From a virus (Duplodnaviria > Heunggongvirae > Uroviricota > Caudoviricetes), in IMG/VR virus record IMGVR_UViG_3300048090_000069, positions 25,652 to 89,651 of that record: DNA of 64,000 bases; one strand, 5' to 3'. Numbering within the stretch: the first letter of the stretch is position 1; each line of letters starts with the position of its first letter. The notes below the pieces were generated by a model that had not been told where the DNA came from, made no database searches, and saw only the letters and a list, made by a program, of their open reading frames with translations. The translations under genes were made by a program, and so were the position numbers. This document shows positions 258 through 41,368 of the stretch, piece by piece.

Positions 258-3200
258 ATGGATATTGCATCTCTTAACGTAAAAGTGAAGTCAGAAGGAA
301 TTCAACAGACAACAAATCAATTGAATTCTCTTGGCACTGCTGCTGCGAACACAGAAAAAAAAGTACAAAACCTTGTCGATGCTGTTGACAAGATGGTTAA
401 ACAATTCGCTGCGGGAGCATCTTCCACTAAAGCAATGACAGATGCCCTCTCCGTTGTGAATCGTTCTACACAAGCATCTGACGCAGCACTGAAATCCTTG
501 ACAACCTCTGTTACGAACCTTCAACGTGAAATCACTTCGCTGAATGGTAGATTACAACAAGGTTCGGGTGCTGTCAACCAGTCTACCGTAACTATTGTGC
601 ATAACACTGCTGCAATGAATGACGCACATGCTGCTGCCAGAGGCTTATCTGGCTCTCTAGGAGCTTTGTGGTTAACTTATGGTAATGTAATCCCCCTTGC
701 CGCTGGTGCGGCTATTGGCGCTTCTCTGAAGGCTATAGTGACGGTTGGTGTAGATGTACAAAGCACTTTGGAGAATATCCGTGTCCGTACTGAATCTACT
801 ATTGAAGAAGTAGCTCTGTTAGGAAAGACCATTTCTGATCTAGGTCAAGGTATTTATGGCCCTCAAGAAGTTGCTAAAGCACTAGAGACATTGACATTAG
901 CCGGTTTATCTGCTAAACAAGCTGTCACAGCTATTGGTGCAGCTTTGAATCTAGCAACATCTGGCGGTACTACTATTGAGAAATCTGCGGAAGCTCTCGT
1001 CACTATCGGGACTGCGGTAGGTGCTACATCAGCAGAATATGACTATCTTGCCGATGCTATTCAGAAGACAGCTAATATCTCTTTGGCATCTGTTGATAGT
1101 ATTGCGGAGACAGTTAAAAGAGCTTCCGTAGTTAATAAATTATATGGCGCTTCATTTGAAGACATCTTAACACAATCTGCTGCATTAGCACAGTTAGGTA
1201 TTAAAAACACGGCTGCTGGTACTGCTATTACTAACTTTTATGCTAATGCTCGTGCAGAAACAGAGAAAGCAAAGAAGGCAGTAGATGCTTTAGGTTTTTC
1301 CTTCCAAGATACAAACGGTAAAGTTAAGGAAATTGTTCCTGCGATTGAAGGTTATGCCAAGGCGTTGAATAAATTTGATTTAAACTCCCAGAAGGAGTTA
1401 ATCACGGCGCAGTTTGGTGAACGTTCTCTTAGAGATATCCAAGCATTAATCTCTTTGTACAATACGGCGGCAGAAAGCCAAGAACGTTTAGCTGATGGTA
1501 CATTGAAGTACAAGAATCGTCTTGAGGAAATTCAGGCACAAGTGCAAGATTCAGCCGGGGCTGCTGTTATTGCGGCATCTCAACAGGCACTATCCACAGA
1601 GAACTTATTCAAAGCAACTGCCAACTCTCTAAAAACTTCTTTAGGTGATGCTTTCAAAGTTATTGAGCCGGATGTACAACGTGTTTCTCGTATATTAAGG
1701 GATGGATTTGCATCTCAAGAATTTAAAACGGCTGTTGAAAATGTGGCACGAGGGTTTGTCTCTGTTGCAAAAGCGATTGCAGAAAACATTGGCCCGTTGA
1801 CAATGTTAGTTGAGTTGTTTTTAACTTACAAAGCCATTGTCGCTGGTGGTGCGTTATTCACAACCATGATTCCTGCAATTGAAGCGGTTGGTATGGCCGT
1901 ACTTACATTAGGTGGCGCTACTCAAACTGCTGCTGTTGGCATGAGTGCTATGGGGGTTGCAACAGCCACTACTACTACAAGTATGTTGGCTCTGACAAGA
2001 GTTATCCCCGGAATTGGGGCAGCATTAGCTGCTGCAACTGCTGTTTTCGCATTATACTCGTTGCACGCCAAAGACGCTACCGATAATACTACAAAATTAG
2101 CAGAATCGAAACGTCAAGCTGCTGTTGACTACAACACAGACTTTTTAAAATCTTTGTCTGAGGAAGCTACTCGTATTGAACTAGTGAATGAGCAAATCAG
2201 TAAAGGTATTACTTTAACAGATGCTCAAACTGAGGCTAACAAGAGACTTGCACTTGAAAAGCAAAAAGATATCAACAACTCTTCTGTTGATGCGGCCCAG
2301 AAAGCCTTAAATGATGCACAAAGAGATGTCTCAAGACTAAGCTCCAGTTCCGGTACAGGTAGGGAGGGAGAAGACCTGAAGAACGCGGTAGCACTTGAGA
2401 AAGCTCTTAAACAAGTCACAATAGCACAGAAGCTTTTAAACGCTGCTAAAACAGATGCGGCAGAAGCAGATAGAAAAGCTCTAGAAGACATGGAAAGAAT
2501 TCGGAAAGGTTCGGCCTTTCAGCAGTCCATGATTCGTGCTCAAACTCTTGGCGCGGAGTTGGAAGCAAGGGAGCGTGCTGGTAGTCAAACATTCAATCCT
2601 GAAGCTGATAAAGCAGCACAGAAGCAATTAACTTTCCTTGAAGAAGAACAACGACAGCTAAAACTGTTAGCCGCTGGTTATCAAGCTCGTGGGGATGCTT
2701 TAATTAAGTCTTATCTAGCTGGTGAGAAGATTGCTGCTGATACACAACAAGCTCGTATCAAAGTTAATCAGGAAGAAGGTAAGTATGCTTCTGATAAAAT
2801 TGCAGCACAAGAACTTATCCTTGCAAAGAATGCTGATGAGAAGAAGGATTATGAAGAACGTGCAAAAATCTTTACAGAGCTTGGTTTTAAAACACAAGGT
2901 ATCATTGCAGGAGAAAAAGCAGCACAAGAAGCTTTTGCAAAAGGTGATACAGACCGCAAGGGCAACTTAGAGCGTCAAGCAAACAAAGCTGCGGACTTTA
3001 TCAAGCTAACTGTAGAGCAACGTGATGCTTTCGTAGAACAAGCTGCGGCTGCTGAACTCATAAACAAAGCTATCGAATACAGAATTAAGCTTGAGTCTGA
3101 AACTAAGTCTGCGGGTGGCCGTGCTGATGCTCTGATGGCTCAAGCTGAAGCAATGTCTGAATATGGTAGTAAAGCAAAATTCACAGCACTTGATTTAGCC

Positions 3201-6200
3201 AAAGGAAAAGTTGCACAAGAAGAATTTACAGATGCAATTACTAAAGGTGCTCAAGCTGCATATATTGCTAGTGCTGCATACGAAACTGCTGCAAAGGCTT
3301 TGGTCAATATCACTAAGATTGGTCAACAGTCTGCGGAAGATGAAGAAAAAGCACAGGCAGATAGCTTGCTGATTTTCGCTGATACTGAGAAAAAGAAAGT
3401 AGAAATTAAAGCAAATTCTGCTAAGAGGATTATTGCCTCCAATTTAGCACAGGCTGAGTCTGCTGCTGGTACAGGGGACGAGAAGGCTATTGATGCTTAT
3501 GAGAAAGCAAAGATATCTTCTGTCAATGCTATTGCACAGATTGACAGGACAACCATTCTCAAAACTCACAACATCGAGTTAGAAGACTGGAAGAAAACAG
3601 CTAATCAAATTGTTGATGCAACTATCGAAGGTTTTGAACGTTCCCGCGATCAAGGATTAAGCATTTGGAAATCCTTAACTAACTCTATCAAAGACATGTT
3701 TAAAAAGACAATCTTTGATTATATTAAAAAAGAGTTTGCAAAACCTATCCTTCTTAATCTTGTTGCAAGTACAGCCGGTACGCTTGGTTTCTCAAGCTTG
3801 TCTGAAACGGCTGGTAAGATGGCTGGAAGTTCTTCTGGTTCAAGTGCAATTAGTTTGGCATCTGCTGCTAACAATATTTACAAAGCTATTAGCGGTGGTT
3901 TTGATGGGCTAGCCTCTTCAATTTCTAATGTAGCTCAGAGTGGACTAAACCTTCTTGGCCCTAACTCTGGCTTCTACACAGGAGAGGCAACTTCTGGTAT
4001 TGCAAATACTTCTCTTGCTAATGGTATTGGTACTGCTGGTAGTGCTGTAGCAGGGATTGCCGGTGGAATTTATGGTGGGCGTGCAATCTCTGGTGGTTAT
4101 TCTGCATTAGGTAGCTCTGGGAATAGTGCTGTAAACATTAGTACTATTGTTGGTGCTGTTGTTGGTGGGCCACTAGGGGCTTTAATTGGTGGATTGATTG
4201 GTGGTTCTGTTAATCGTTTGTTTGGACACAAAGCTAAAGAGATTCAGTCGCAAGGTATTCGCGGAACTTTAAGTGGTGATGCAGCAACTGGTGAAAACTA
4301 TGCTAATTGGATTCAAAAGGGTGGTTTGTTCAGGAGCGATAAAAAGGGAACAGAGACATCTGCTATTACTTCAGATATTCAAAATACATTAACCAGTAGC
4401 TTTAACCAACTGAAATCTACAGTAGGATATTTTGCTAAAGATGTTGGTGTTGGTACTTCTGCATTAGATGGCTTCACAAAACAATTTGATATTGCATTTG
4501 GAACTGATGCACAAAAGAATCAAGAAGCTGTAACAAAATTCTTCACAGATTTAGGTGATGAGTTTGTTACAAAGCTGATTCCTAACATATCTGACTTTGC
4601 AAGACAGGGTGAAACTGCTTCTCAAACTTTGGAAAGATTGTCCGCAACTTTCAAAATCACAAATCAAATTGTTGAGATTCTGGGTAAAACTGGAGAGCAA
4701 GCATTTGGTAGTGTAGGGCTGGCATCGGATAAAGCTCGTGAACGTCTGATTGATTTAGCTGGTGGTATTGATAAACTTGGCTCTAAAGTTACAGCTTATG
4801 CTTCTGATTTCTTAACGGATGCTGAGAAAATAGCTCCTGTGAAGAAAGCAGTTAATGAAGCATTGACATCTCTCGGATTAGCTGGTGTAACAACTAAAGA
4901 GCAATTCAAAAATATTGTCAACGGACTTGACCTTACTTCTGAAGCTGGTGCAAAACTGTTCAATGATTTACTAGACTTAGCTCCTGCATTTGCACAAGTG
5001 GCTGATGCTGCTGATTCTGCTGCACAGGCTGCTAAAGACGCTGCTGAAGCTGCTGAAGAGGCACAAAAAGCTGCTTTTGAAGCTGCCATGAAAGCTGTAG
5101 ATGCCTCTTTCAATAGACTGAAAAAATCTGTCGATGCACAGAAGTCTGTGGAGAATGACAGATACAATCAAGAAGTGGCATTTATTAAGGCGGTAGGAGA
5201 GGCACGTAAAAATGCTGCTCAAACTGAATTAGATACTGCTAAACAAACTGTCAGTACGTTGTCAGGTATTTTAAGTAGCTTGCAGAATGCTTTGGTTAGC
5301 ACAAAAGTTGAATCTGTGGCGCTAGATAAAGCTCGCCGTGTTTCTGCTCAAACTTATTTAGCATCTATTCGTGGAACAGACTTATCTAAAGCCTCTGGAT
5401 TAAATGATGCCCTTGGAAATGTTTCTGGGGACTCTAAACAGTTCTTCGCAACATTTGAAGAGTATGCTTTGGATCAAGCTAAGACAGCCAATTTAATTTC
5501 TGGCTTAGTTAATGAAACCACTATTAGCAAGAGTTTTGCAGAATTGACAGTTGAACGTTTGAATGATACAATTACAGCAATTCAAAATTCTACAGATGCT
5601 CAATTATCTGCTGCTGAAAGTCATCACAATGACGAAATAGCCAAGTTGGATAAGGTTATTGATGCGGCTCAATTACAAATTGATGCATTAAATGGAATTC
5701 AAACTGCTGTTCTTTCTGTTACATCTGCTATTGCTAATTTCAATGCTGCTGTTAATGCTGCGGTAGGTGCGGGAGGTAGTGTAGGTGGTAATCCTAGCCC
5801 TACTTATAGTGGAACAGGTAGTAGTGGTAGTATTCCTAGCAATGGCGGTGGTGGTCTTGGTAGTATGTACGTCAACCCTATTGGCTCTGGTACAGGTGGT
5901 TCTGAGTCTAATCCGTTCTTCTGGGAAAACACTGTCTGGGACTTCATGCGCAATGGAGCATACGTAGATGGTAGCCATGCATCCGGTTTAGGTTATGTTC
6001 CGTTCGACGGTTATATTGCAGAGCTTCACAAAGGCGAGCGAGTTATGACCGCTGCCGACAATGCAAACCTCTCTCGCCAAGCAGATAGTGCAAGTAGTGG
6101 TTCTTCTCAAGATATTAACTCTCTGAAAGCTTCCATTGAAGACTTGAAGCAAGCAATTGTTTCTGGAGATATTGCAGTAGTTGGATATCTGAGAGAGATG

Positions 6201-6257
6201 TTACAGATTGATCGTCGTTGGGATCAAGACGGATTACCTGCCACACGAGAAGTGTAA
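258..6257 (+). CDS. tail tape measure protein (1999 aa)
   Basis: Very long Ala/Gln/Lys-rich coiled-coil protein with central hydrophobic TM-like segments and a Gly-rich C-terminal region. These are typical TMP features. It is followed by a terminator hairpin. Confidence 0.8.
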   Translation: MDIASLNVKVKSEGIQQTTNQLNSLGTAAANTEKKVQNLVDAVDKMVKQFAAGASSTKAMTDALSVVNRSTQASDAALKSLTTSVTNLQREITSLNGRLQQGSGAVNQSTVTIVHNTAAMNDAHAAARGLSGSLGALWLTYGNVIPLAAGAAIGASLKAIVTVGVDVQSTLENIRVRTESTIEEVALLGKTISDLGQGIYGPQEVAKALETLTLAGLSAKQAVTAIGAALNLATSGGTTIEKSAEALVTIGTAVGATSAEYDYLADAIQKTANISLASVDSIAETVKRASVVNKLYGASFEDILTQSAALAQLGIKNTAAGTAITNFYANARAETEKAKKAVDALGFSFQDTNGKVKEIVPAIEGYAKALNKFDLNSQKELITAQFGERSLRDIQALISLYNTAAESQERLADGTLKYKNRLEEIQAQVQDSAGAAVIAASQQALSTENLFKATANSLKTSLGDAFKVIEPDVQRVSRILRDGFASQEFKTAVENVARGFVSVAKAIAENIGPLTMLVELFLTYKAIVAGGALFTTMIPAIEAVGMAVLTLGGATQTAAVGMSAMGVATATTTTSMLALTRVIPGIGAALAAATAVFALYSLHAKDATDNTTKLAESKRQAAVDYNTDFLKSLSEEATRIELVNEQISKGITLTDAQTEANKRLALEKQKDINNSSVDAAQKALNDAQRDVSRLSSSSGTGREGEDLKNAVALEKALKQVTIAQKLLNAAKTDAAEADRKALEDMERIRKGSAFQQSMIRAQTLGAELEARERAGSQTFNPEADKAAQKQLTFLEEEQRQLKLLAAGYQARGDALIKSYLAGEKIAADTQQARIKVNQEEGKYASDKIAAQELILAKNADEKKDYEERAKIFTELGFKTQGIIAGEKAAQEAFAKGDTDRKGNLERQANKAADFIKLTVEQRDAFVEQAAAAELINKAIEYRIKLESETKSAGGRADALMAQAEAMSEYGSKAKFTALDLAKGKVAQEEFTDAITKGAQAAYIASAAYETAAKALVNITKIGQQSAEDEEKAQADSLLIFADTEKKKVEIKANSAKRIIASNLAQAESAAGTGDEKAIDAYEKAKISSVNAIAQIDRTTILKTHNIELEDWKKTANQIVDATIEGFERSRDQGLSIWKSLTNSIKDMFKKTIFDYIKKEFAKPILLNLVASTAGTLGFSSLSETAGKMAGSSSGSSAISLASAANNIYKAISGGFDGLASSISNVAQSGLNLLGPNSGFYTGEATSGIANTSLANGIGTAGSAVAGIAGGIYGGRAISGGYSALGSSGNSAVNISTIVGAVVGGPLGALIGGLIGGSVNRLFGHKAKEIQSQGIRGTLSGDAATGENYANWIQKGGLFRSDKKGTETSAITSDIQNTLTSSFNQLKSTVGYFAKDVGVGTSALDGFTKQFDIAFGTDAQKNQEAVTKFFTDLGDEFVTKLIPNISDFARQGETASQTLERLSATFKITNQIVEILGKTGEQAFGSVGLASDKARERLIDLAGGIDKLGSKVTAYASDFLTDAEKIAPVKKAVNEALTSLGLAGVTTKEQFKNIVNGLDLTSEAGAKLFNDLLDLAPAFAQVADAADSAAQAAKDAAEAAEEAQKAAFEAAMKAVDASFNRLKKSVDAQKSVENDRYNQEVAFIKAVGEARKNAAQTELDTAKQTVSTLSGILSSLQNALVSTKVESVALDKARRVSAQTYLASIRGTDLSKASGLNDALGNVSGDSKQFFATFEEYALDQAKTANLISGLVNETTISKSFAELTVERLNDTITAIQNSTDAQLSAAESHHNDEIAKLDKVIDAAQLQIDALNGIQTAVLSVTSAIANFNAAVNAAVGAGGSVGGNPSPTYSGTGSSGSIPSNGGGGLGSMYVNPIGSGTGGSESNPFFWENTVWDFMRNGAYVDGSHASGLGYVPFDGYIAELHKGERVMTAADNANLSRQADSASSGSSQDINSLKASIEDLKQAIVSGDIAVVGYLREMLQIDRRWDQDGLPATREV

Positions 6258-10086: not shown

Positions 10087-10365
10087 ATGGAAGCTAGTGT
10101 TTTATTGTGGATTGCACAAGCTGTTTTAGGCGCGTTTGCAGCAGTGTTGTGGTTCCTCTTTCAAGATGTAAAATCAAAAGCAGAGAAGGCAACTAATGAC
10201 CTCGCAGAATTCAAAACAATAGTAGCTCAAGTGTACGTTAGCCACACAGCTTTAAAAGACACACTTGGGGATATTAAAGAAATGTTCCGAGATTACGAAA
10301 CAAAGATGGATCAACGTCTTAATCGTATTGAGGATAAGCTAGATGAAGTTAGAAGTAAACAGTAA
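10087..10365 (+). CDS. spanin-like (Rz-type) membrane protein
   Basis: N-terminal TM helix followed by a charged coiled coil. It sits directly upstream of the endolysin. Confidence 0.4.
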   Translation: MEASVLLWIAQAVLGAFAAVLWFLFQDVKSKAEKATNDLAEFKTIVAQVYVSHTALKDTLGDIKEMFRDYETKMDQRLNRIEDKLDEVRSKQ

Positions 10366-10376
10366 AGGAACAAATA

Positions 10377-10790
10377 ATGATTAACAGTAGAAACGTCAAC
10401 GACCTAACAGGTGACATGCAACATCGCTGCCAGAAGTTTATTGCCATGTGCAAGGATGCTGGAATTGATGTTATTGTGACATCCACATATCGTGACCTTG
10501 AATCACAAAATGCCTTGTACGCACAAGGTAGAACAACTCCGGGCAGGATTGTCACCAATGCAAAAGCTGGATATTCTGCGCACAACTTCCGTAGAGCGTT
10601 TGACATCTGCATCGTGGTAAATGGCAAGGCTGTGTGGGATGACCTTGACCTTTATAAGCAATGTGGAGAAATTGGAGAGAAGTGTGGATTAGATTGGGCC
10701 GGTTCTTGGAAATCCTTTAAAGAGTATGTACATTTCCAAGAAAAAGACCTTGACATGGGTGCTTTGCGGAAAGAATACGGAGTGAAATAA
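10377..10790 (+). CDS. endolysin, peptidase M15 (VanY/L-alanyl-D-glutamate peptidase type)
   Basis: Motifs STYRDLESQNALYAQGRT and DLDWAGSW...H are characteristic of M15 zinc peptidases used as phage endolysins. Confidence 0.8.
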   Translation: MINSRNVNDLTGDMQHRCQKFIAMCKDAGIDVIVTSTYRDLESQNALYAQGRTTPGRIVTNAKAGYSAHNFRRAFDICIVVNGKAVWDDLDLYKQCGEIGEKCGLDWAGSWKSFKEYVHFQEKDLDMGALRKEYGVK

Positions 10791-11278
10791 TGTTCGCCAA
10801 ACTTAAGTTGTTCTTTCAACTCTTTCAATTCGGGAAAGAAGTTGGAAACAAACTATTCTGGAAGCAAGCACAATCAACAGTCTTACCTGCTGTTGTGGGT
10901 GGTATTGTGGTTGTACTTAATCTTCTCAAATCCTTCGGTATCGAGGTTGGGCTTGATGAAACTACTATTTATTATATTGCTGGTAGCCTTTACATGCTCA
11001 TCAACTCTTGCCTCACCTTCATTACGTCGAAACATGCCGGTATTGGAGGAATGCAACCGGGAGCCGTGGGAGAAGCCCAACAGGCTATGCCAAGCAATCC
11101 TACGCCAGCAGGAGGCGTTGAAGCAAGTACGACAGTGCAATCTGAGCATCAAGCCACAAGTACCAGTCGATTTGACGACGAGACTGTTAGGCGAGCTAGA
11201 GAATGGGCTGAACGACAAGGGATCGATGGGAAACCTGTTCCAGAGGGGCAGAATAATCCTTTCAACACAATGGGCTGA
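10790..11278 (+). CDS. holin-like membrane protein
   Basis: Two predicted TM helices with a hydrophilic C-terminus. ATGA overlap with the endolysin. Last gene of the plus-strand module. Confidence 0.45.
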   Translation: MFAKLKLFFQLFQFGKEVGNKLFWKQAQSTVLPAVVGGIVVVLNLLKSFGIEVGLDETTIYYIAGSLYMLINSCLTFITSKHAGIGGMQPGAVGEAQQAMPSNPTPAGGVEASTTVQSEHQATSTSRFDDETVRRAREWAERQGIDGKPVPEGQNNPFNTMG

Positions 11279-13351: not shown

Positions 13352-14308
13352 TTAGTAAACCCATTCACCTTGTAGAGAATCTTTACTGTAAGCTGTAATG
13401 GTAGTCTCAAAGAAGTTACCAAGAATACCATCCCCTGTTATTTCCTCAACAAACGGAAGAGGATTTTTCTGAATGCCGAATTGTGCCTTGAAGCCCATTT
13501 GTTGCATACGGTAATCACACACAAGACGAATATAGTCTTTTAAATCTTGTTTGTCAAGCAGTTTTGGTTGATGTACAGAGTAACACAAATCAATGAAATC
13601 ATCTTCCAACTTCACAACCTCCCGTGCTGTTTCATAAATGTTGCGCTTAAGTTCTTCTGTAACAACTGAAGGATTCTCTTCAACAAAAATTTTAAACAGT
13701 TCAGACAAACCTTCTACATGATAAGATTCTTCAATAATGCTCCATTGATTGACACTCACCATCCCCGGAAGTTTATTCACACGAGAGTAGTCAAGCAGCA
13801 TAGCGAAGGATGCAAACAGATTAACACCTTCCATCAGAATTTGTTTGGCTAGGTATTCAGCCTTCCCTTTATTAGAGCGAAGGTCTGTAGCTTCAACCAT
13901 AAAATCATGCTTATCCTTCATCTCTTTATACTGTAAGAATTCAGACATAAATTCTTCACTGTCATACCCGAGAGTGTCATTCAGACGTTTGTATCCAAGC
14001 ATGTGTGTTGTTTCACGACAGGCAAACGACAGCAGCATAATCCTAGCGTCAGCGTTCTTGAATACAGGGAGAAGTTTCTCAACATATCCTGCACAAACAT
14101 CTGTATCAGCTTGTGTGAATAGGCGGAGAATCATCTTTGTGTAAGCCTTCTCTCCTTCTGAAATTGTGCCATCCTTCCACTGCACAACGTCTACAGACAT
14201 ATCAGCTTCTTCAGGATACCAGTGCGCACGTTCATGCTTGGCGTAAATCTCTTGCAGTTTATGATAACGTGGTACGAAGATTTCGGTAGTTTCTGTAATT
14301 TTACTCAT
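13352..14308 (-). CDS. nrdB: ribonucleotide reductase class I beta subunit
   Basis: 318 aa with di-iron/tyrosyl-radical motifs (E...H, RETTHM-like) typical of NrdB/R2. Confidence 0.85.
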   Translation of the reverse strand: MSKITETTEIFVPRYHKLQEIYAKHERAHWYPEEADMSVDVVQWKDGTISEGEKAYTKMILRLFTQADTDVCAGYVEKLLPVFKNADARIMLLSFACRETTHMLGYKRLNDTLGYDSEEFMSEFLQYKEMKDKHDFMVEATDLRSNKGKAEYLAKQILMEGVNLFASFAMLLDYSRVNKLPGMVSVNQWSIIEESYHVEGLSELFKIFVEENPSVVTEELKRNIYETAREVVKLEDDFIDLCYSVHQPKLLDKQDLKDYIRLVCDYRMQQMGFKAQFGIQKNPLPFVEEITGDGILGNFFETTITAYSKDSLQGEWVY

Positions 14309-14311
14309 TGT

Positions 14312-16180
14312 TTATCCTTGACACGAAACACAAACATCTTCACCAGACCAATCAACTAATGCACGACGTTCAATAGCTTTGGCATTATCGGACACGCCCT
14401 CTCGCTCCCCTCTATAATAATACATTGTCGTCACGTTCTCACTCTTCAGGAATTTCAAGTGGACAGAATTAACATATTGCCTACTGCTACCAAATGGGAA
14501 ATACACATTCAAACTTTGACTTTGGAATCCTGCACCAAGAGCACTTGCACGAGCATCAGCTTGTTCGATTACCCAATGCATATCTAATTCCATTGCTGTA
14601 GCAAACACTTTACGTTCATGCTCAGACAGGAAAGTCAAATCAGCAACACTACCATCTTTAGAGAGAATGTAATCCCACGTTGCATCATCATCTTGTCCGT
14701 AGCTCTGTAGCACCCTTTGTAGATGACGATTCTTTACACGGAAGTTACCAGCACGAGTAGACTTCAGGAACACATTACGGAAGTATGGCTCAATGCAAGG
14801 AGAAGTGTCTAGCAGGTCAGCACTGTTTGCATTTGGTGCAATAGCTGTTACACGGCTATTACGAAGTCCTGTACCTTTCATATCTTCTGGCTCACCACGT
14901 TCAATTGCTAGTTCTCTGCTAGAGGCTTCAGCGCGCTTTGCAATCATACCATAAATCTGATGTGTATGTTGAATAGCACTGTTGAATCCACCACCCTCAA
15001 ACGGAATACCTTTACTCTGCAAATAACCATGCCAACCTAGAGTGCCAAGCCCAATAGCACGCTCTCGTTCAGCAGAATATTTAGCTTTCCTGAGATTATC
15101 TGGTGCTGTGTCAATAAAGCTCTGAAGAACATTGTCCAAGAAACGAATCAAATCTTCAACAATCCTCGTATCTTTCCACTCTTCATATTTCTCAATATTC
15201 AAACTAGACAGGCAGCAGACGAAGGTACGTTCTTCATTTGTGGGCAGAGTAATTTCAGAACACAGATTACTACCTTTAATCTCTAATCCTAAATCCTTTT
15301 GGGATTGTGGCATCAGACGATTAGCCAAGTCAATCTTCATCAAATATGGCTCACCTGTCAGAGCACGAGTTTCAAGAATCTCTTCCCACACTTTACGTGC
15401 TGCCAGTGTCTCCCTAATTTCGCCAGTGTGAGGGCATTTCAAATCATACCATGTATCTTTCAAAACAGCTTCAATAAACTTGTCTGTCAGATTTACAGCA
15501 TTGTGAAACTGTTGCCGATTATCACTCCTACGCTTACTGTCACCACCGGGCTTACGGAAACGAATATGCTCAATAATATCTGGATGATCTACACGTTGAT
15601 AAGCAGCGATTGCACCTTTTCGTGTCTTACCTTGACGATAATATCCAATTGCACTGTCCATCACTTTCATATAAGGAATCGGGCCGGGGGCTTTACCCCC
15701 TACAGCACGAATACTCATATGAGCACCTGTACCACCTCCAGCAAGAGACAAATCAGCAAGCTCTTGCATCACTTCCACTTGACCTTTAGTTGTGTCTGGA
15801 ACATCAAAGGCGAAGCAAGAGATAGGTTGACCGTTATATTTCTCTGTAGGGAAGAATGTGTGTAGTTTGTTCCATTCAATACCTTTTGACCAATTCTTCC
15901 ATTCACCTTTTTGCGCATTACTGAGAACAGGACTAGCATACATGAACCATCCATTGTGTACATAATCATAAATACGTTGTGCTAGTTCATAGTCTCCGTA
16001 GCAATAAGCAACAGCAGGTCGTGCCAGTGCTTCAGAGATTGTTTCATCATCACGCTTGTAGAATCCGTCTAACAGTGTTCGGGAAAACTCAGTGATATAA
16101 GCAGGGTCTTCTTTATTAATTTCAATTTCAAGATACTTTTCTTTTGTCATTTCCACCCTTTGTTCATTTGAAGAAAGCAT
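14312..16180 (-). CDS. nrdA: ribonucleotide reductase class I alpha subunit (short form, no ATP-cone)
   Basis: 622 aa with conserved RNR large-subunit segments (GLGTLGWHG, SNLCSEI, NRHL). It sits directly upstream of nrdB. Confidence 0.85.
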   Translation of the reverse strand: MLSSNEQRVEMTKEKYLEIEINKEDPAYITEFSRTLLDGFYKRDDETISEALARPAVAYCYGDYELAQRIYDYVHNGWFMYASPVLSNAQKGEWKNWSKGIEWNKLHTFFPTEKYNGQPISCFAFDVPDTTKGQVEVMQELADLSLAGGGTGAHMSIRAVGGKAPGPIPYMKVMDSAIGYYRQGKTRKGAIAAYQRVDHPDIIEHIRFRKPGGDSKRRSDNRQQFHNAVNLTDKFIEAVLKDTWYDLKCPHTGEIRETLAARKVWEEILETRALTGEPYLMKIDLANRLMPQSQKDLGLEIKGSNLCSEITLPTNEERTFVCCLSSLNIEKYEEWKDTRIVEDLIRFLDNVLQSFIDTAPDNLRKAKYSAERERAIGLGTLGWHGYLQSKGIPFEGGGFNSAIQHTHQIYGMIAKRAEASSRELAIERGEPEDMKGTGLRNSRVTAIAPNANSADLLDTSPCIEPYFRNVFLKSTRAGNFRVKNRHLQRVLQSYGQDDDATWDYILSKDGSVADLTFLSEHERKVFATAMELDMHWVIEQADARASALGAGFQSQSLNVYFPFGSSRQYVNSVHLKFLKSENVTTMYYYRGEREGVSDNAKAIERRALVDWSGEDVCVSCQG

Positions 16181-29460: not shown

Positions 29461-30478
29461 AGTAATATTTCACCATCCTTTCCACTAACACAGGATTGAG
29501 CGTTACAATATCTTTCTTAAGACGTTCCTCAGTTTTCTCCTGCTTGACGTAAGACATAAATGCACCAAGCTCTTTACCTTGTAAGCCTGTCCAGCCTGCT
29601 ACAAGCTCACCATTATAACGCCTTTTGAACTCCTGATGATAAGCTAAGTCTGCTTGAGCCTGTTCGTATTGTTCTTTGAATGTTGGAATCTTTTCAAACA
29701 AATAAGGCAACCAACCAGATTTATCAGTACCACCGCGATATTTTTGTGCATTTTGTGTGTTTGTCTCTTCATAGTGTTCAATCCACTCCAAGAAACTTGT
29801 GTACGTCTTCCTCTTGGCATCCCTTGTTCTAGCAGCATGATTACGATTCTCCAGAGCATAAATACTTTTGTTGAAGAACGAACTTGAAACGACAAACTTG
29901 AAAATATCTTCCAGTGCATCGAAGCCTTGTTGATAGCGGCTAAAGTCGTAGCCAAGCACAGGAAGAATCTGCTCCCAATCTTTCAACAGAGTGATTTCAC
30001 GGAACACTTGTGTCTTGTCTGCATAGAATTTGTATGTCAGGCCGTCATGCCCTAACTTGAGTCCCATGGAGTGAGCTACACGACCAATGAGGTTGCCCAA
30101 GTCATTGTAGGCAAAATACTGCTGAGAACTCACATAATCCGCTGGCCTAGTTAAAATTAGATCAATTTGAAATTGTTTGTATTCAAAAGAAACAACGTTA
30201 CCGTTTTTGACAACTTCCTTTGTGTTGAACAATCGGATTAGTTTGTCCTCAATGTTGCAAGGGTCATATTTATCAGTGCAAGCCAGAACATCCATGTCAC
30301 CAAATGACTCTTTCAAGGTATATGCTTTGATAGTGGATACAGAATCAAAAGGAAAATTGTTTGAGATGATATCAAGCACTTCCTGCTCAAGCTGATGGTA
30401 TTCTTCTGCCTGATATCGTCGTGTTGTGCAATTCTTGAGTGCTGCGCCTCCCATTACTATCCCCCAATATCTCTGCAC
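29429..30478 (-). CDS. putative Pol-beta-superfamily nucleotidyltransferase-like protein
   Basis: Possible hG[GS]...DhDh element (ESFGDMDVL) with a downstream acidic strand (QIDLIL). No ligase KxDG motif. Function unassigned. Confidence 0.3.
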   Translation of the reverse strand: MQRYWGIVMGGAALKNCTTRRYQAEEYHQLEQEVLDIISNNFPFDSVSTIKAYTLKESFGDMDVLACTDKYDPCNIEDKLIRLFNTKEVVKNGNVVSFEYKQFQIDLILTRPADYVSSQQYFAYNDLGNLIGRVAHSMGLKLGHDGLTYKFYADKTQVFREITLLKDWEQILPVLGYDFSRYQQGFDALEDIFKFVVSSSFFNKSIYALENRNHAARTRDAKRKTYTSFLEWIEHYEETNTQNAQKYRGGTDKSGWLPYLFEKIPTFKEQYEQAQADLAYHQEFKRRYNGELVAGWTGLQGKELGAFMSYVKQEKTEERLKKDIVTLNPVLVERMVKYYFEKWKETTGI

Positions 30479-30628: not shown

Positions 30629-31030
30629 TTAATCATTAATTATAACCCTTCCACTCGACAGTGTAATTTCTTTCTCTTCGTTTGGCAAATACTCTTTCCA
30701 TGTCTTGCTCCATCTGCCACGGAAGCTTAACACCCATGTTTTCTCCGCTACACCAAACACTTTGTGCATACGCTCACGAGTGGTGTAGACAGGCTTCAAA
30801 GAAGGTTTAAAAGTTGTTACATCATAATTCATATCATCTTTGACTACTTCTACCAAACCACCACTCAACACCCATGACACAGCATTAAACGCATGATTGT
30901 GAAAAGCTTCTCTGCTCCCCTTATCAAATCGCAGCAACACAATAGAGAACAGAGATTTAGCCTCAAAGAGCCAATATCCTGTGACGTTAGACTCAGAGCC
31001 ACCGTCTTTACTCTTGAAGAATATTTTCAT
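30629..31030 (-). CDS. hypothetical protein (possible cupin-like)
   Basis: 133 aa with an HNHAF..G motif. Weak call. Confidence 0.4.
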   Translation of the reverse strand: MKIFFKSKDGGSESNVTGYWLFEAKSLFSIVLLRFDKGSREAFHNHAFNAVSWVLSGGLVEVVKDDMNYDVTTFKPSLKPVYTTRERMHKVFGVAEKTWVLSFRGRWSKTWKEYLPNEEKEITLSSGRVIIND

Positions 31031-32080: not shown

Positions 32081-32368
32081 CTAAGGAAAATAACCCAAGA
32101 TGACAGCAACACAAAGGGCAACAGTGGCGAGAATCCCCACAGAGTATTTTACAGCTTTCACATTGTCTCCTTCAGAACAGTCAAAGATGTCAGCAATAAA
32201 TGCCACTCCAGCCAATATGATGAACATACAACAAATAACACTAAAGCCTGTCATAGCAGCAAACTCCCTATAGAAAGTAAGATTATAACACAGAAGGTTG
32301 AAAAGTACAAGGTGGAAGGCTCTCGCCAACCCTCTAGACGGGACAGATGGTAGGTGCCAAGGCCACAT
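32081..32368 (-). CDS. small membrane protein (likely shorter, starting at internal Met); a 59-aa lipobox-containing ORF (approx 32264..32443, other frame) overlaps
   Basis: Hydrophobic C-terminal half. The alternative frame encodes MTLRETRMYALIFLLCLILVACG..., a lipoprotein-like signal. Confidence 0.3.
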   Translation of the reverse strand: MWPWHLPSVPSRGLARAFHLVLFNLLCYNLTFYREFAAMTGFSVICCMFIILAGVAFIADIFDCSEGDNVKAVKYSVGILATVALCVAVILGYFP

Positions 32369-32451
32369 GCCACTAGGATGAGACAGAGTAGGAAGATTAG
32401 TGCGTACATTCTTGTTTCTCTCAATGTCATAAGGGGCTTCGGCCCCTGTTG

Positions 32452-33255
32452 TTATTTCGTGTTGACAATGCCCCGGAAGTCGGATGGAATCACAATCGTA
32501 TTCACCTTACCATTACGAACACCTTCAGCAATCATCAGTTGTGCCTGAGCCTGCATATACGAAATAGATTGACCTGCATTGTTTGCCAGAGAAGCCATAC
32601 GTTCAGACTCTTTCTTAGCAGTTTGCACTTCCACTTCCTTTGCTGCCAGTTCGCTCTTAGCCTTAATCAGATTGTTAGCTGCATCAATGATAGCAGGATT
32701 TGCCTTAATACTACGAGCTTGCACTTGAGTTACGAGAACAGCGTTATCCAACTTTTCCTCTGCCAGAGTTTGTTTCACTTGTGCAAGAATCTCATGTTCA
32801 ATGTCTGCACGATGGTCATTCATTGTCAGAGCGTCATACTGACGTGCCACTTTGTAAACAGCATTCTTAACAGTGTTTTGCAGGTAAGTGTGCATAAGAT
32901 GGATTTCACCTTGATCATCAAGAGCGTGGAAGCTGCGATTCTTGTTAATGTACAAATCACTTACAGAGCTTGGGTTAATGCTGTAGACAACAGATACATC
33001 GAAGTCGCCCATTGTAGAATTATCCTTTGCCAGAGGCGTAAGGTCAGACACATCTACAGAGATTTCCTTGATAGGAACTTCCAGCACAGAACCTACGAGA
33101 GTTTGATTGAACGAACCAGCCACCAATTCTGTACTGTCAATGGTGTTGTTAAAATTCTTACGCAGACCAACCTTACCTTGATCAACAACTTTGAAACAAC
33201 CCGACAGAGAGCTTGCCATAATAATAGCAGCTACAACAGACATAAACTTTTTCAT
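32452..33255 (-). CDS. SPFH/band-7 (prohibitin/HflC-like) domain lipoprotein
   Basis: Signal peptide with lipobox (SLSGC). The body is an SPFH-like domain followed by a long Ala/Gln-rich coiled-coil tail. Confidence 0.6.
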   Translation of the reverse strand: MKKFMSVVAAIIMASSLSGCFKVVDQGKVGLRKNFNNTIDSTELVAGSFNQTLVGSVLEVPIKEISVDVSDLTPLAKDNSTMGDFDVSVVYSINPSSVSDLYINKNRSFHALDDQGEIHLMHTYLQNTVKNAVYKVARQYDALTMNDHRADIEHEILAQVKQTLAEEKLDNAVLVTQVQARSIKANPAIIDAANNLIKAKSELAAKEVEVQTAKKESERMASLANNAGQSISYMQAQAQLMIAEGVRNGKVNTIVIPSDFRGIVNTK

Positions 33256-33280
33256 AAATATTCCTCCTAGAATAAATTAA

Positions 33281-33499
33281 TTAACCAAAAATACTAATAG
33301 CAATGACCGTAATACCACAGCCAGTGATAAGACCTGTGACAGCACTAGTGAAAATATTATTAGGCTGCTTTACCAAAGGGCCAAAATATACGCCAATTCC
33401 AACCATCAAAACACCTAACAGGCACAGTAACATTTTTACTTCTCCTAGAAAACAATCACAAGGGCTGTGATGACCATAATAGATATGATACCACAACAA
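33281..33499 (-). CDS. small membrane protein (2 TM)
   Basis: 72 aa, hydrophobic. Confidence 0.45.
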   Translation of the reverse strand: MLWYHIYYGHHSPCDCFLGEVKMLLCLLGVLMVGIGVYFGPLVKQPNNIFTSAVTGLITGCGITVIAISIFG

Positions 33500-33627
33500 A
33501 CAATCTTAAGCAACAGAGAAATTGTACCTCCTGCTTCTTTGTACAAACGAACACCGGAAGGGATGCCCATGATGATAAGCAACAAGAGTAAGAATGTCAA
33601 GATGATTTTGATGATCATAAACGGCCT

Positions 33628-34281
33628 TTAGGACGTAACCTTAAACACACTGTTGATTTGTTCAGCAATCAGCGTAGCGAGGATAACGTGTTCCTTCTGA
33701 GTCACACCTTCTTCCATGCGTACTTCCAGATAATGAATCCAAGAGCGAATTGTACCATTCACGTATAGACGACTCATAGTAAGTCCTTCAGGAAGAATTA
33801 CACGAGCAACCTCTTTAGCAACACCTCGATTCAGAGCACGAGTGTACGTGTCTTTGACAATATGCAGAAGCATTGCTTGTTCACTCTTCCACCAATCAGC
33901 AAGCAATTCATCATCAGCTTCTAGGCTGTTCTGGCGGTTCTTGTTGTCCTGCATACGAAGCTCACGAAGACAGAAAGCTTGTTCAAGTTGTGTCACATCA
34001 GCATAACGCTGAGAGAACTCTTGGAATCTGAAGCTAGTGTGTCGCAGAAGTTGGCGAGCAATATCTCGTGGGGATTCCACTTCCACAACAACATTAGCCA
34101 TCTCAAACGGACTCCAATGTTTGTGCTTCATCAGATAGGCAGTAAGCTTTTCTGCTGTATCCATATTCATCTGATTAGAGGGATTACTCACACGCGCACA
34201 ATATGCAATCAGGTCGTGCATATCCTCTAGGCCCTCTACAACAGGCTTCGTCACAGCAATTAGTTTTGCACTAAACGTCAT
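33628..34281 (-). CDS. thyX: flavin-dependent thymidylate synthase
   Basis: The ThyX signature RHTSFRFQEFSQRY matches the RHR...SQRY motif. Confidence 0.75.
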   Translation of the reverse strand: MTFSAKLIAVTKPVVEGLEDMHDLIAYCARVSNPSNQMNMDTAEKLTAYLMKHKHWSPFEMANVVVEVESPRDIARQLLRHTSFRFQEFSQRYADVTQLEQAFCLRELRMQDNKNRQNSLEADDELLADWWKSEQAMLLHIVKDTYTRALNRGVAKEVARVILPEGLTMSRLYVNGTIRSWIHYLEVRMEEGVTQKEHVILATLIAEQINSVFKVTS

Positions 34282-38508: not shown

Positions 38509-38924
38509 GTTTCCTCCATGTAAAATTTATGTAAACCAATTGTGCGACGATGTTTAAACTTCTTATTCCACTCAGGATGTTTGTCCAACCTATGAAAATG
38601 AGAACATCCTCTACAGACAGGAGACATTCTAAACAACTCTTCCCATCCTGTCAAGCTCTTTGTTTCAATAATCTTCTGCCATGTGAAGCCAGAGAATTGC
38701 TTAGGCTGTAGAGCCACAACAGGGCAACTCTTGTTTGTACGTTTCATCCTCTCTAGAACTACGTCCATCACTGCACGCTTCCCTGCTAAGGACTCCCCTG
38801 AAGCCTCATGCTCTACGACAGCTTTCAAACAAACAGTGTCAGAGACAGCGAAGCTCCTAGAGGGATTGTCTACGTTGATACAAACAAAGAGTAGAAGAAG
38901 GCTCCAGAGCCATTTCAAGGCCAC
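38505..38924 (-). CDS. secreted SleB-like cell-wall hydrolase (Hydrolase_2 family)
   Basis: N-terminal signal peptide. The body carries EASGESLAGKRAVMDVVLERM...PKQFSGF, matching the SleB/CwlJ-type hydrolase motif. Confidence 0.5.
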   Translation of the reverse strand: MALKWLWSLLLLFVCINVDNPSRSFAVSDTVCLKAVVEHEASGESLAGKRAVMDVVLERMKRTNKSCPVVALQPKQFSGFTWQKIIETKSLTGWEELFRMSPVCRGCSHFHRLDKHPEWNKKFKHRRTIGLHKFYMEET

Positions 38925-40540
38925 AGGCGCTTACGAATCTTTTCTAGAGAGTCTTCTACAACCAGCTTACCATCTTCAAACACTGTTCGCAGTAATCCTT
39001 GTTTCTCTTCTTCAGGAGTTTGCTCATCGTACAGGACAAACCTCCCATCTTCATATTCTACACGGAGCAAACCTTTAGCAGATTTCTTCATGCCATCACC
39101 CGTTTTAGGGTCTTTGAAAATGTTACGTGGCTCTCCATTGACAATGCCGTAAGTGGCTTTCATAGCAAAGCCGTAGCTGTCACGAGTGACATGCTGATAG
39201 GTGTAGGAGCCAATGCCAAATACAATGTTAGAAGAGGCAAAGCCTTTAGCTTCCAGACGCTTCAGAATTTGCTGAGCACGTTCCAGAGTGATGCTGTCTC
39301 CGTAAATCAGACCAACACGAGGATTCAACATTTTGTGTCCTGTCTCGGACAGAGTACCACCAAAGATGTCCCAAAGGCATTCTACAGAGCCTTTTACTTC
39401 GTGCTCTGACACTTCCCGGCCTAGTTCAATGTCCATCAGACAATTACAAGAATCCCCACAGAAACTGTAATCAAATTCGTAATACTTGCCGTCTTTGACC
39501 GCTACATCAGTGGAATAGATATTGTCCTCGCAAACATCGTCAATATCTGTCACACGAAGTCCAGCAACAATTTTTACAGGATCACCACTATCAGGACGGA
39601 ACACCACCTTAGCATTACCCAGAGCATCAGGCTTACGTGCAAGGATGATGTCTTTCAGTTGTGCAGCAGTGTTTGTAATGACATTCCAGTAGTCCCAAGT
39701 GTCCGAAACAATACTAACAATACCGGACGGATATAGGTCAGTGATGAGACGCTTAATTGTAGCGTATTCACCTTCATCTGCCCCGCCCATGCACATTACA
39801 GAATGCTCCGTAGCTGGAACAGACCCACCAACAAACGTTTCACTGCCCTTGTAGTACTTTTCCAGATATTCAATGGCAGAAATAGTGTCAGTGCCAAGGA
39901 AAGACAGTAAGTGACCCGGAGCACTTTGAGCACCATCGAAGCTCCCAGACAAACCACGAAGCGAGAAATCATGACCTTGCCACAGAATAAACTCCTTAGG
40001 CGCACCTGTCTTTTCTGCATAATCCGTCAGCAGCTTACGATATTGGTAAGCAGTGGTTGCAGTGGTCGTAGGCTTCCACAGGTTGTTGCTGTACGCATCT
40101 TCCAGATAACCAACCAGCCAGCCAAAGCCGATCACCGTATTAGTGACAGTGAGTACAGGTACTTTAATATCTACCAAACTACCTTCAGGCAAAGCTTTGA
40201 TGCGCAGCGGCAGATAGCCCAAATCATGCAGGGCCGCAATGTGCGAGACATCAACAGCATCAGGGCCAAGGCACTTATCCATCATGGCTTTGTATTCACC
40301 TACAGCTTGTTCCTTTGGAACATTGAAGAATTGTTCATTGAACAAATCAATCAGGAAGTATTTGATAAAGCCTTGCAGGCCAAAGAATACAATCTTCTCG
40401 TCAAACGTATCTTTCAGCTTTGGTGCAAGCCGAGAGGAACGGGCAGTGAAATTAGAATAGACGTATTCCGTACCTTCTGGATACATCTTAACGTGTCCCG
40501 TCTTGTACATATCAGCAGCAAACAGCGGATTCAGTTTCAT
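38915..40540 (-). CDS. nadV: nicotinamide phosphoribosyltransferase family protein (Nampt/NadV homolog; could be the Namat-type nicotinamide ADP-ribose transferase)
   Basis: 541 aa with clear Nampt-family similarity along its length (MKLNPLFAADMYKTGH..., GTDT, C-terminal region). It is adjacent to a Prs-like gene. Confidence 0.85.
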   Translation of the reverse strand: MKLNPLFAADMYKTGHVKMYPEGTEYVYSNFTARSSRLAPKLKDTFDEKIVFFGLQGFIKYFLIDLFNEQFFNVPKEQAVGEYKAMMDKCLGPDAVDVSHIAALHDLGYLPLRIKALPEGSLVDIKVPVLTVTNTVIGFGWLVGYLEDAYSNNLWKPTTTATTAYQYRKLLTDYAEKTGAPKEFILWQGHDFSLRGLSGSFDGAQSAPGHLLSFLGTDTISAIEYLEKYYKGSETFVGGSVPATEHSVMCMGGADEGEYATIKRLITDLYPSGIVSIVSDTWDYWNVITNTAAQLKDIILARKPDALGNAKVVFRPDSGDPVKIVAGLRVTDIDDVCEDNIYSTDVAVKDGKYYEFDYSFCGDSCNCLMDIELGREVSEHEVKGSVECLWDIFGGTLSETGHKMLNPRVGLIYGDSITLERAQQILKRLEAKGFASSNIVFGIGSYTYQHVTRDSYGFAMKATYGIVNGEPRNIFKDPKTGDGMKKSAKGLLRVEYEDGRFVLYDEQTPEEEKQGLLRTVFEDGKLVVEDSLEKIRKRLWP

Positions 40541-40543
40541 TGT

Positions 40544-41368
40544 TTAAATTTCCTTAATTTTATTGTGAGAGCCAAACATATTGTTTACAACATAGATATT
40601 GTCATACACATCAGCAACAATGTCAACACCTTTAGTAAAAATACCATGTGTCACCATGATGTTGATAGTGCCGTGATAGTGCATCTGAAGCTCGTCAGCC
40701 AGCGGAATGAACGTGCCGCCACCATCTAGAATATCATCTACGACAAGAACATTTTTGTCTTCAAATTGCCCAATATCATTGTACACAACAGTGCCAGTGA
40801 TTTTCCCCGTCTTGACATCTCGTGTCTTGTCAGCCCTCATCACTTCCACTTCGGGAATATACGTAGAGACAAACTGAGCATACTTCTGAATCTTCTTCAA
40901 TGCCCCAGCATCAGGACTTACAATCACAGTGGCCTTGCAATCTTGCATAGCTTTCAACACTTTTTGTTCCACAGAGCAAATATGAATGTTGTACAACAGA
41001 GCACCTAAAACATCACTGTGAGGGTCTGTGACAAACACCCTATCAAAATTCATGCTGTTAATGAAATTACAAATAACTTTCAAACTATGACTCTCTCCAG
41101 CATTACAAACCCTATCTTGGCGAGCATATGGGAAATAATCAATCGTCAGATTTACAGGAATCTTCGGATAGTTTCTCCGCACAGCATCATTCAGCAGAGC
41201 AAGTTCAATCAAATCCTCATTACCTTGCCACTTCAATGTAATATGTGCTTGAGGGTGTTGTGAATTATATCCCAAAGCCATATCAGTTAGCTTAATACCG
41301 GTTTCTCCTGCTGGAAAATTCCATCTATTAATTGTTACAGGATGGCGGTCTACATATAAACTAAGCAT
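40544..41368 (-). CDS. prs: ribose-phosphate pyrophosphokinase family protein (Prs homolog; could be Adps-type ADPR pyrophosphokinase)
   Basis: YARQDR motif and PRPP-binding loop VVDDILDGGGT are present. At 274 aa it is shorter than canonical Prs. Confidence 0.85.
   Translation of the reverse strand: MLSLYVDRHPVTINRWNFPAGETGIKLTDMALGYNSQHPQAHITLKWQGNEDLIELALLNDAVRRNYPKIPVNLTIDYFPYARQDRVCNAGESHSLKVICNFINSMNFDRVFVTDPHSDVLGALLYNIHICSVEQKVLKAMQDCKATVIVSPDAGALKKIQKYAQFVSTYIPEVEVMRADKTRDVKTGKITGTVVYNDIGQFEDKNVLVVDDILDGGGTFIPLADELQMHYHGTINIMVTHGIFTKGVDIVADVYDNIYVVNNMFGSHNKIKEI

Follow-up and report, generated by a model that had tools for sequence, protein, structure and literature searches.

The region described here encodes an SPFH/Band 7 lipoprotein together with several small membrane proteins and lies at positions 32081-33623 of a stretch of 64,000 nucleotides (nt) from a virus of the Caudoviricetes (IMG/VR record IMGVR_UViG_3300048090_000069, positions 25,652 to 89,651). 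This whole stretch is called the window in the following. All real genes of the region are located on the minus strand and are part of a long block of replication and nucleotide-metabolism genes. In the direction of transcription, they comprise an open reading frame (ORF A) for p58, a hairpin protein of 57 amino acids (aa) with two transmembrane (TM) helices, a 50-aa ORF with two TM helices (ORF B), the gene for the SPFH lipoprotein and, behind a GC-rich hairpin, a further 57-aa ORF with two TM helices (ORF E). The core of the locus is read here as a two-gene envelope cassette, p58 followed by the SPFH lipoprotein, which comes directly after replication genes and is bounded by the hairpin at its 3' end. 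The SPFH lipoprotein is an already annotated phage family, and the new part is its conserved 58-aa partner.

The SPFH/Band 7 lipoprotein

The 267-aa protein is a member of the SPFH/Band 7 superfamily with a lipobox, and hence a predicted lipoprotein. An initial annotation of the stretch, made from the letters alone, had already assigned it to this family, and the domain search bore this out: Pfam Band_7/SPFH (PF01145) was matched over residues 23-216 with E=3.2e-13 and 50.6 bits (cut-off 23.6), and phrog_200 'lipoprotein' over residues 1-239 with E=3.4e-33. The lipobox claimed at the same time was equally found. A signal peptide (aa 1-19) leads to the lipobox LSGC, and the N-terminus, MKKFMSVVAAIIMASSLSG followed by the cysteine, agrees with the lipobox pattern [LVI][ASTVI][GAS]C. 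Cys20 (codon 33196-33198) is invariant among 62 homologues of 51-85% identity. The SPFH domain, which spans approximately aa 23-185, starts only three residues past this cysteine.

An AlphaFold2 monomer model of the protein (mean pLDDT 83.7, pTM 0.68) consists of the SPFH domain, two long helices (residues 187-225 and 227-247) and short C-terminal strands. When this model was compared with the PDB by Foldseek, the best match was HflK/C (9cz2, E=8e-12), followed by human PHB1/2 (9o9z, E=4e-11), erlin (9vvj, E=3e-10), stomatin (9z7u, E=8e-10) and QmcA-YbbJ (8z5g, E=1.9e-8), and the alignments with cage subunits spanned 230-280 columns. The model thus matches full-length chains of HflK/C, prohibitin (PHB), stomatin, erlin and QmcA, which is the fold of the cage-forming SPFH members, and the HflC/prohibitin-like character with a coiled-coil tail that had been proposed is recovered in its helices and structural matches. 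At the sequence level the protein appears divergent. No family above cut-off, and thus neither an HflK nor an HflC family, was found in NCBIfam, a profile search of PDB sequences gave no HflK/C at E<=1, and a PADLOC search returned nothing useful.

The family as a whole is large. Database searches identified 3,521 relatives at E<=1e-5, and 174 cultured-phage records as well as 220 viral contigs contain matches. The BFVD database contains a 48%-identical "Band 7 domain containing protein" of an uncultured phage besides many other viral SPFH proteins. The window protein is 42% identical to the copy of the best cultured phage and 27-29% identical to those of Ackermannviridae and Acinetobacter phages.

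A conserved two-helix partner

The p58 protein of the window is recognised by a hidden Markov model (HMM) of the p58 family with E=8.6e-9. This model was built from 38 ORFs lying upstream of SPFH genes in other phage loci, and its seed included two close relatives of the window (L007 and L012). Length and C-terminus are strongly conserved: 34 of the 38 sequences are 58 aa long and 37 end in phenylalanine, and the 57-aa protein of the window terminates in VIVF. The loop between the helices is rich in lysine and arginine, with a mean of 3.8 K/R as against 1.3 D/E. According to the positive-inside rule, basic loops remain in the cytoplasm, so that the loop of p58 is predicted to be cytoplasmic, with both termini at the periplasmic face.

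No match to the window p58 was obtained in Pfam, PHROG, NCBIfam or PADLOC, and canonical p58 sequences matched nothing in PHROG or PADLOC, the two collections searched with them. Protein-database searches with p58, as with ORF B, gave nothing beyond near-identical proteins, owing to the shortness of the queries. A near-consensus sigma-70-like site (TTGACA-17-TATCAT, 11/12, 33600-33572) was observed on the minus strand within the 5' part of the p58 gene. It was not taken as meaningful, since the region is poorer in promoter-like sites than its shuffles and the site may therefore have arisen by chance.

Conservation and co-inheritance of the pair

The ORF upstream of the SPFH gene was inspected at 80 viral-contig loci encoding SPFH relatives, and the p58 HMM was then applied to 94 loci, which were dereplicated at 90% SPFH identity to 44 clusters. 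In 75 of these 94 loci, five of them bacterial, the SPFH gene is preceded on its strand by a p58-family ORF, which corresponds to 33 of the 44 clusters. In 37 seed loci the end of the p58 ORF is separated from the SPFH start by 1-21 nt; the gap amounts to ~189 nt in the window and its nearest relatives, in which it is widened by ORF B. Pairwise distances between p58 proteins are correlated with those between the corresponding SPFH proteins (Mantel r=0.74), a value reached by 0 of 2000 permutations. The divergence of p58 thus tracks that of its neighbour, which indicates that the pair is passed on as one unit; this concerns co-inheritance, not contact. A third conserved gene was not found around the cassette, no other neighbour being common to more than 9 of the 44 clusters, and the genomic contexts differ among clusters, as expected for a mobile accessory cassette.

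Ten phage clusters, as well as Massilia and Bdellovibrio, have the SPFH lipoprotein without p58, and an eleventh cluster negative with the HMM (L085) contains a p58-like ORF that the model had missed. In more distant loci, small membrane ORFs of another kind are encountered. Phage CBA120 encodes a 69-aa ORF with two TM helices (phrog_11680) which abuts its SPFH lipoprotein gene directly upstream, three Acinetobacter phages have membrane ORFs of 83-90 aa overlapping the SPFH start, and in four clusters without p58 (L015, L018, L023 and L024) an ORF of 64-77 aa with one or two TM helices follows 2-27 nt past the SPFH stop. Distant relatives therefore seem to keep an adjacent small membrane ORF, but judged from their sequences the proteins look unrelated. 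Directly upstream of the CBA120 pair lies orf127 (L002, 3472-3792), which matches phrog_1510 'superinfection exclusion' with E=1e-52.

Relatives on bacterial chromosomes

SPFH homologues with 50-60% identity were identified in two groups of bacterial chromosomes. In the first, comprising Oxalobacteraceae (Massilia, Duganella, Pseudoduganella, Telluria) and Bdellovibrio/Bacteriovorax, they occur without p58. In the second, Roseateles and other Burkholderiales, a p58-like match lies upstream in 17 of 79 loci at E<=0.01, and in 12 of these at E<=1e-4. The upstream ORF of L143-L145 and L152 encodes 60 aa with a basic loop and two hydrophobic segments, and it ends in LF in the three that were read to the end. 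Where the flanks of the Burkholderiales pairs were checked, housekeeping genes were found, e.g., for AspRS, cardiolipin synthase and a GGDEF protein; with such neighbours, these loci are not prophages. The chromosomal pairs of Burkholderiales show ordinary host G+C. Median G+C is 0.41 in phage copies and 0.63 in bacteria, and this phage-like composition suggests that the phage copies have been resident in phages for long.

A 698-aa gene of the AAA+Peptidase_M41 type (FtsH-like) was observed divergently upstream of the 60-aa hairpin and SPFH operon in L152 (104-2200), and likewise in L150, L155 and L158-L160. This neighbour is confined to six closely related Roseateles genomes (Roseateles noduli, chitinivorans), and its product has no obvious membrane anchor. 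As the arrangement is restricted to one lineage, a link to FtsH on this basis was dropped.

Genomic setting

The gene map (Table 1) agrees with the initial placement of the locus in a replication module and outside the lysis cassette. The SPFH gene is located in the minus-strand block between the gene for ThyX on one side and those for primase/helicase and PolA on the other. The cassette starts 9 nt downstream of ThyX on the same strand, and the endolysin gene is ~21 kb away.

Table 1. Positions of cassette genes, neighbouring features and other genes in the window
Feature	Position	Strand	Remarks
p58 (ORF A), 57-aa two-TM hairpin protein	33445-33618	minus	MIIKIILTFLLLLLIIMGIPSGVRLYKEAGGTISLLLKIVCCGIISIMVITALVIVF
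ORF B, 50-aa two-TM protein	33281-33433	minus	ATG 8 nt past AGGAG overlapping the p58 stop
SPFH/Band 7 lipoprotein, 267 aa	32452-33255	minus	Pfam Band_7; phrog_200; AGGAGG site upstream
GC-rich hairpin GGGGC-CGAA-GCCCC	32433-32446	minus	5 nt past SPFH stop
ORF D, 59-aa 'lipobox' ORF, spurious	32251-32430	minus	Intergenic sequence and indel site
Promoter-like site	32282-32310	minus	Upstream of ORF E; read from sequence
ORF E, 57-aa two-TM protein	32081-32254	minus	GGGAG site 9 nt upstream of ATG
ThyX, flavin-dependent thymidylate synthase	33628-34281	minus	Pfam Thy1 E=8.5e-36; immediately upstream of cassette
Primase/helicase	27715-29460	minus	Same-strand block
PolA	25575-27701	minus	Same-strand block
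Ribonucleotide reductase	13352-16180	minus	Same-strand block
NAMPT	38915-40540	minus	541 aa
PRPP synthetase (ribose-phosphate pyrophosphokinase)	40544-41368	minus	274 aa
133-aa ORF	30629-31030		Replication block; phrog_4786 'cysteine dioxygenase' (cupin-like)
349-aa 'DNA polymerase' ORF	29429-30478		Far side of primase/helicase from PolA
HNH endonuclease	24804-25520		Adjoins PolA
Endolysin	10377-10790		
1999-aa ORF	258-6257	plus	At window start

No match to cultured phages was obtained by megablast of the locus, and the window is without a near-identical cultured relative. To PAK_P1-like and Aeromonas phages the source phage is related only distantly, with an identity of 43-47% between the primase/helicase proteins. 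An identical SPFH protein was found on 14 contigs, and contigs of 77-90 kb carrying it occur in several metagenomes.

Some further observations concern the surroundings. The adjoining genes for NAMPT and ribose-phosphate pyrophosphokinase form an NAD-salvage pair, and in phage BUCT-ZZ01 (L001) a gene for NAMPT is likewise located a few kb upstream of the p58-SPFH pair. The 349-aa polymerase ORF, separated from PolA by the primase/helicase gene, suggests a split polymerase. At 10087-11278, the endolysin gene has two ORFs as neighbours, one of 92 aa that combines a TM helix at its N-terminus with a coiled coil and one of 162 aa with two TM helices; a canonical outer-membrane spanin lipoprotein was not seen there on inspection by eye.

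Small open reading frames and transcript boundaries

Small membrane proteins flanking the SPFH gene had been part of the initial annotation, and one of them, p58, is indeed the conserved partner, but the ORF sizes required correction and one ORF turned out to be spurious. What had been described as a TM peptide of ~37 aa is the 57-aa ORF of p58. The supposed 72-aa protein with two TM helices is most likely the 50-aa ORF B, which still has two: the longer version with a TTG start (33281-33499) would overlap p58 by 55 nt, and the ATG at 33433 behind AGGAG is a much likelier start. Among the overlapping small lipoprotein/TM ORFs, that of 59 aa (ORF D) is no gene, and that of 95 aa is real but encodes the 57 aa of ORF E.

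ORF B is restricted to the window and its nearest relatives (L008-L010 and L014) and is missing from L007, L011 and L012, in which p58 abuts the SPFH gene. From this distribution it is regarded as a lineage-specific insertion between the two cassette genes. Its sole database relative is 96% identical, and that it is most likely a coding sequence is judged from the ribosome-binding site and from hydrophobicity, not from conservation. ORFs B and E gave no match in Pfam, PHROG or NCBIfam. Likewise, no NfeD-type partner was found at the locus, as the flanking ORFs of 50-57 aa do not match NfeD in Pfam or NCBIfam.

The hairpin behind the SPFH gene is found in L011 with the same stem and a different tetraloop (GGGGC-TTCG-GCCCC). 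It likely marks the 3' end of the transcript of the cassette or stabilises this transcript. Since only TT follows it on the minus strand, it is not a canonical intrinsic terminator.

ORF D was considered as a second lipoprotein and rejected: a ribosome-binding site is lacking, and the start codon lies at the foot of the conserved hairpin. It also contains the promoter-like site listed in Table 1, and in L010, where the locus is identical, gene callers skipped the ORF. In L008, the two sides of a 397-aa PcfJ-like gene are matched by bases 1-31 and 31-206 of this region. This gene (PF14284) was observed directly past the SPFH hairpin in the near-identical loci L007-L009 and L011 (3833-5026), and it is absent, with clean breakpoints, from the window (32431-32255) and from L010. 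This gene, which may be mobile, is thus polymorphic in its presence among these phages.

The promoter-like site reads TTGTAC-17-TGTTATAAT and combines a -10 hexamer TATAAT with an extended -10 TG. It was missed by the scan tool because its -35 hexamer matches at only 3/6 positions, and it is regarded as a candidate. Lying behind this site, ORF E probably belongs to a separate transcription unit. Gene calls of 56-58 aa exist at its position in L007, L009, L010 and L012, which is a match of position between unaligned sequences. The p58 HMM did not recognise ORF E as a p58 homologue, and its link to the cassette is uncertain.

Proposed model and alternative explanations

In the proposed model, the SPFH protein would be exported, lipid-modified at Cys20 and anchored to the periplasmic face of a membrane with almost no linker. 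Its SPFH1/2 domains, two helices and C-terminal strands would assemble into a ring or cage, as in HflK/C, prohibitin, stomatin, erlin and QmcA, and this cage would fence off a membrane patch. p58 would reside in the inner membrane with both termini periplasmic and the basic loop cytoplasmic, and might act as a dedicated partner of the SPFH protein, either as a transmembrane component of the fence or as a client held within it. Together, the pair would resemble, as two polypeptides, the layout of hairpin, acyl anchor and SPFH domain that is found in stomatin and flotillin. By this means it might condition or shield the envelope of the infected cell and either block the entry of competing phages or avert premature membrane failure.

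Family, fold, lipobox, conservation of the partner, co-inheritance and gene context form the basis of this model. Lipidation, the membrane of residence, oligomerisation, contact with p58, early or middle expression and the role itself would be its predictions. The structural part, an acylated SPFH cage facing the periplasm with p58 as its membrane partner, is considered rather probable, an envelope-protective or exclusion role is doubtful, and structure and role combined are given a probability of about 0.45. In an extended form, p58 and the SPFH lipoprotein would constitute a hitherto unrecognised two-component 'split stomatin' cage at the periplasmic face, be one of the most widely distributed accessory modules of lytic phages that still lack characterisation, and physically shield the cell against the entry of competing genomes or against membrane-targeting abortive-infection effectors; as a whole, this version is rather unlikely.

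Several points weigh against the model. The chief uncertainty is which membrane holds the lipoprotein. At position +2 after the lipid-modified cysteine, threonine is found in 36 of the 44 clusters, histidine in three, tyrosine in two and phenylalanine, serine or methionine in one each; the window has phenylalanine, and aspartate occurs in none of the 44. In E. coli, a lipoprotein without aspartate at +2 is sorted to the outer membrane, a rule that is host-specific. Outer-membrane targeting is thus predicted by the E. coli rule, from which that of the host may differ, and would set the lipoprotein apart from p58 in the inner membrane. As the SPFH lipoprotein also exists without p58, the latter is not required for anchoring, and in the window itself the 50-aa ORF B separates the two genes. 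Co-inherited neighbours would be equally expected of two independent envelope genes travelling together, and contact between p58 and the SPFH protein is predicted only. Early expression is suggested by gene position only. Finally, the phrog_1510 gene beside the CBA120 pair counts in favour of the model, but its 'superinfection exclusion' label is an annotation that has yet to be verified, and the window does not contain this gene.

A different proposal starts from the top structural match, HflK/C in complex with FtsH (9cz2, 7wi3), and from the SPFH domain predicted in the periplasm, which corresponds to HflK/C topology. The phage assembly might capture or displace the host FtsH or compete with HflK/C, with p58 as a substrate, decoy or adaptor of FtsH, and this would alter the degradation of phage or host membrane proteins (e.g., LpxC) or of regulators. 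The six Roseateles genomes with a divergent AAA+Peptidase_M41 gene next to the p58-SPFH operon could be cited in its favour, but this neighbour belongs to one narrow lineage and lacks an obvious membrane anchor, and an FtsH-related gene was found near the cassette in none of the phage loci examined. Moreover, prohibitin, stomatin and erlin match nearly as well as HflK/C, no HflK/C family match exists at the sequence level in NCBIfam or in the PDB profile search, and the phage has one gene without an N-terminal TM helix rather than a K/C pair. Mimicry of HflK/C is therefore judged quite unlikely.

Of a similarly low likelihood is a lipoprotein that acts alone in the outer membrane. It would be sorted by Lol to the inner leaflet and there mask or immobilise receptors or channels, like Llp and Cor, which act in exclusion, or stiffen the membrane, and p58, a protein of the inner membrane, would share its transcript but have no other relation to it. 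Besides the residues at +2 described above, the homologue of CBA120, a phage of E. coli and Salmonella, fits this idea, as it has glycine at this position. A Vi01-like homologue was detected with low counts in proteomics of virion preparations, which would fit carry-over of outer-membrane vesicles (PMC10892097), and phages are known to use lipoproteins as exclusion factors (PMC4936722). However, p58 is conserved in position and length and is inherited together with the SPFH gene, which would be difficult to account for if the two had no functional link. The known receptor-masking lipoproteins, unlike this one, are small and adjoin tail genes, and sorting rules vary by host.

The cassette might also be a module for lysis timing, in which p58 is membrane-damaging or holin/antiholin-like and the SPFH cage restrains or organises it and thereby sets the time of membrane failure. 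p58 has a holin-like size and two TM helices, and in other systems channels and membrane proteins are controlled by SPFH proteins, e.g., ASIC by stomatin (PMC3433786). The distance of the cassette from the endolysin gene, which lies in an opposite-strand block, the sole and insignificant match of a p58 to a holin family (phrog_126, E=0.5) and the bacterial chromosomal copies beside housekeeping genes make this reading very unlikely. A host-derived passenger or auxiliary gene that supplements bacterial envelope maintenance without a phage-specific mechanism would agree with the chromosomal homologues in Oxalobacteraceae, Bdellovibrio and Roseateles and with the varied, mosaic contexts, but is improbable for a low-numbered PHROG family that is kept across many unrelated groups of lytic phages with phage-like, long-resident G+C.

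Previous descriptions and significance

A paper of 2006 already listed SPFH ORFs among those of T4-like phages (PMC1524935). The function of the phage SPFH family has been acknowledged as unknown (PMC10892097), and a paper of 2026 stated that the reason for the presence of the SPFH gene in phage "remains unclear" (PMC13239085). Literature searches revealed no functional study of phage SPFH proteins; a description of the 58-aa partner family or of the two-gene cassette was not found either in these searches, which were aimed at the SPFH gene and not at the partner. With the co-inherited partner, what had been no more than a domain annotation becomes a defined two-gene system that is open to cloning and testing, and the cassette might serve as a minimal lipid-anchored model of how SPFH cages engage membrane partners. 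If a role in exclusion or envelope protection holds true, it would bear on competition between phages and on the design of phage cocktails.

Comparison with known systems

Two-component spanins consist of a small outer-membrane lipoprotein and an inner-membrane protein with a periplasmic coiled coil and belong to the lysis cassette, but here the lipoprotein is large and of the SPFH type, its partner has no periplasmic domain, and the locus is remote from the endolysin gene. T4 Imm and Sp as well as Llp and Cor are, like the cassette products, small inner-membrane or periplasmic/lipoprotein envelope factors encoded by phages and produced in the course of infection, so that a functional analogy is conceivable. 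No cassette ORF matched families of the T4 Imm or Llp/Cor type in Pfam or PHROG. Llp and Cor are small proteins, and their genes are associated with tail genes.

E. coli HflK/HflC, which form the FtsH cage (7wi3, 7vhq, 9cz2), share with the phage protein the SPFH1/2 domains, the two helices, the C-terminal strands and a periplasmic SPFH domain, which for the phage protein is predicted. In contrast to them, the phage protein is anchored by a lipobox signal peptide instead of an N-terminal TM helix, it is encoded by a single SPFH gene in the window and in related loci without a K/C paralogue pair, and structure-based identity is as low as 15-17% without a family match at the HMM level. Lacking TM anchor, K/C pair and family-level match, the protein is neither HflK nor HflC, and its gene does not belong to an NfeD operon.

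Operons of NfeD and SPFH genes (QmcA-YbbJ, 8z5g; YqiJ-YqiK; the archaeal PH1510-PH1511) resemble the cassette in that an SPFH gene adjoins a gene for a membrane protein, and QmcA matches in fold. p58, however, consists of just two TM helices and has neither an OB-fold or protease domain nor a Pfam match to NfeD. QmcA also faces the cytoplasm, whereas the phage protein is predicted to face the periplasm.

The eukaryotic proteins stomatin, flotillin and prohibitin are matched in fold over the full length. In stomatin and flotillin, a hydrophobic hairpin and acyl anchors stand beside the SPFH domain, and the cassette has these elements as two polypeptides. In the cassette, however, the hairpin forms a protein of its own, in which two TM helices of full length are combined with a charged loop, the lipid would be the N-terminal modification of a bacterial lipoprotein, and the likeness of p58 to the hairpins of stomatin and flotillin is best regarded as an analogy.

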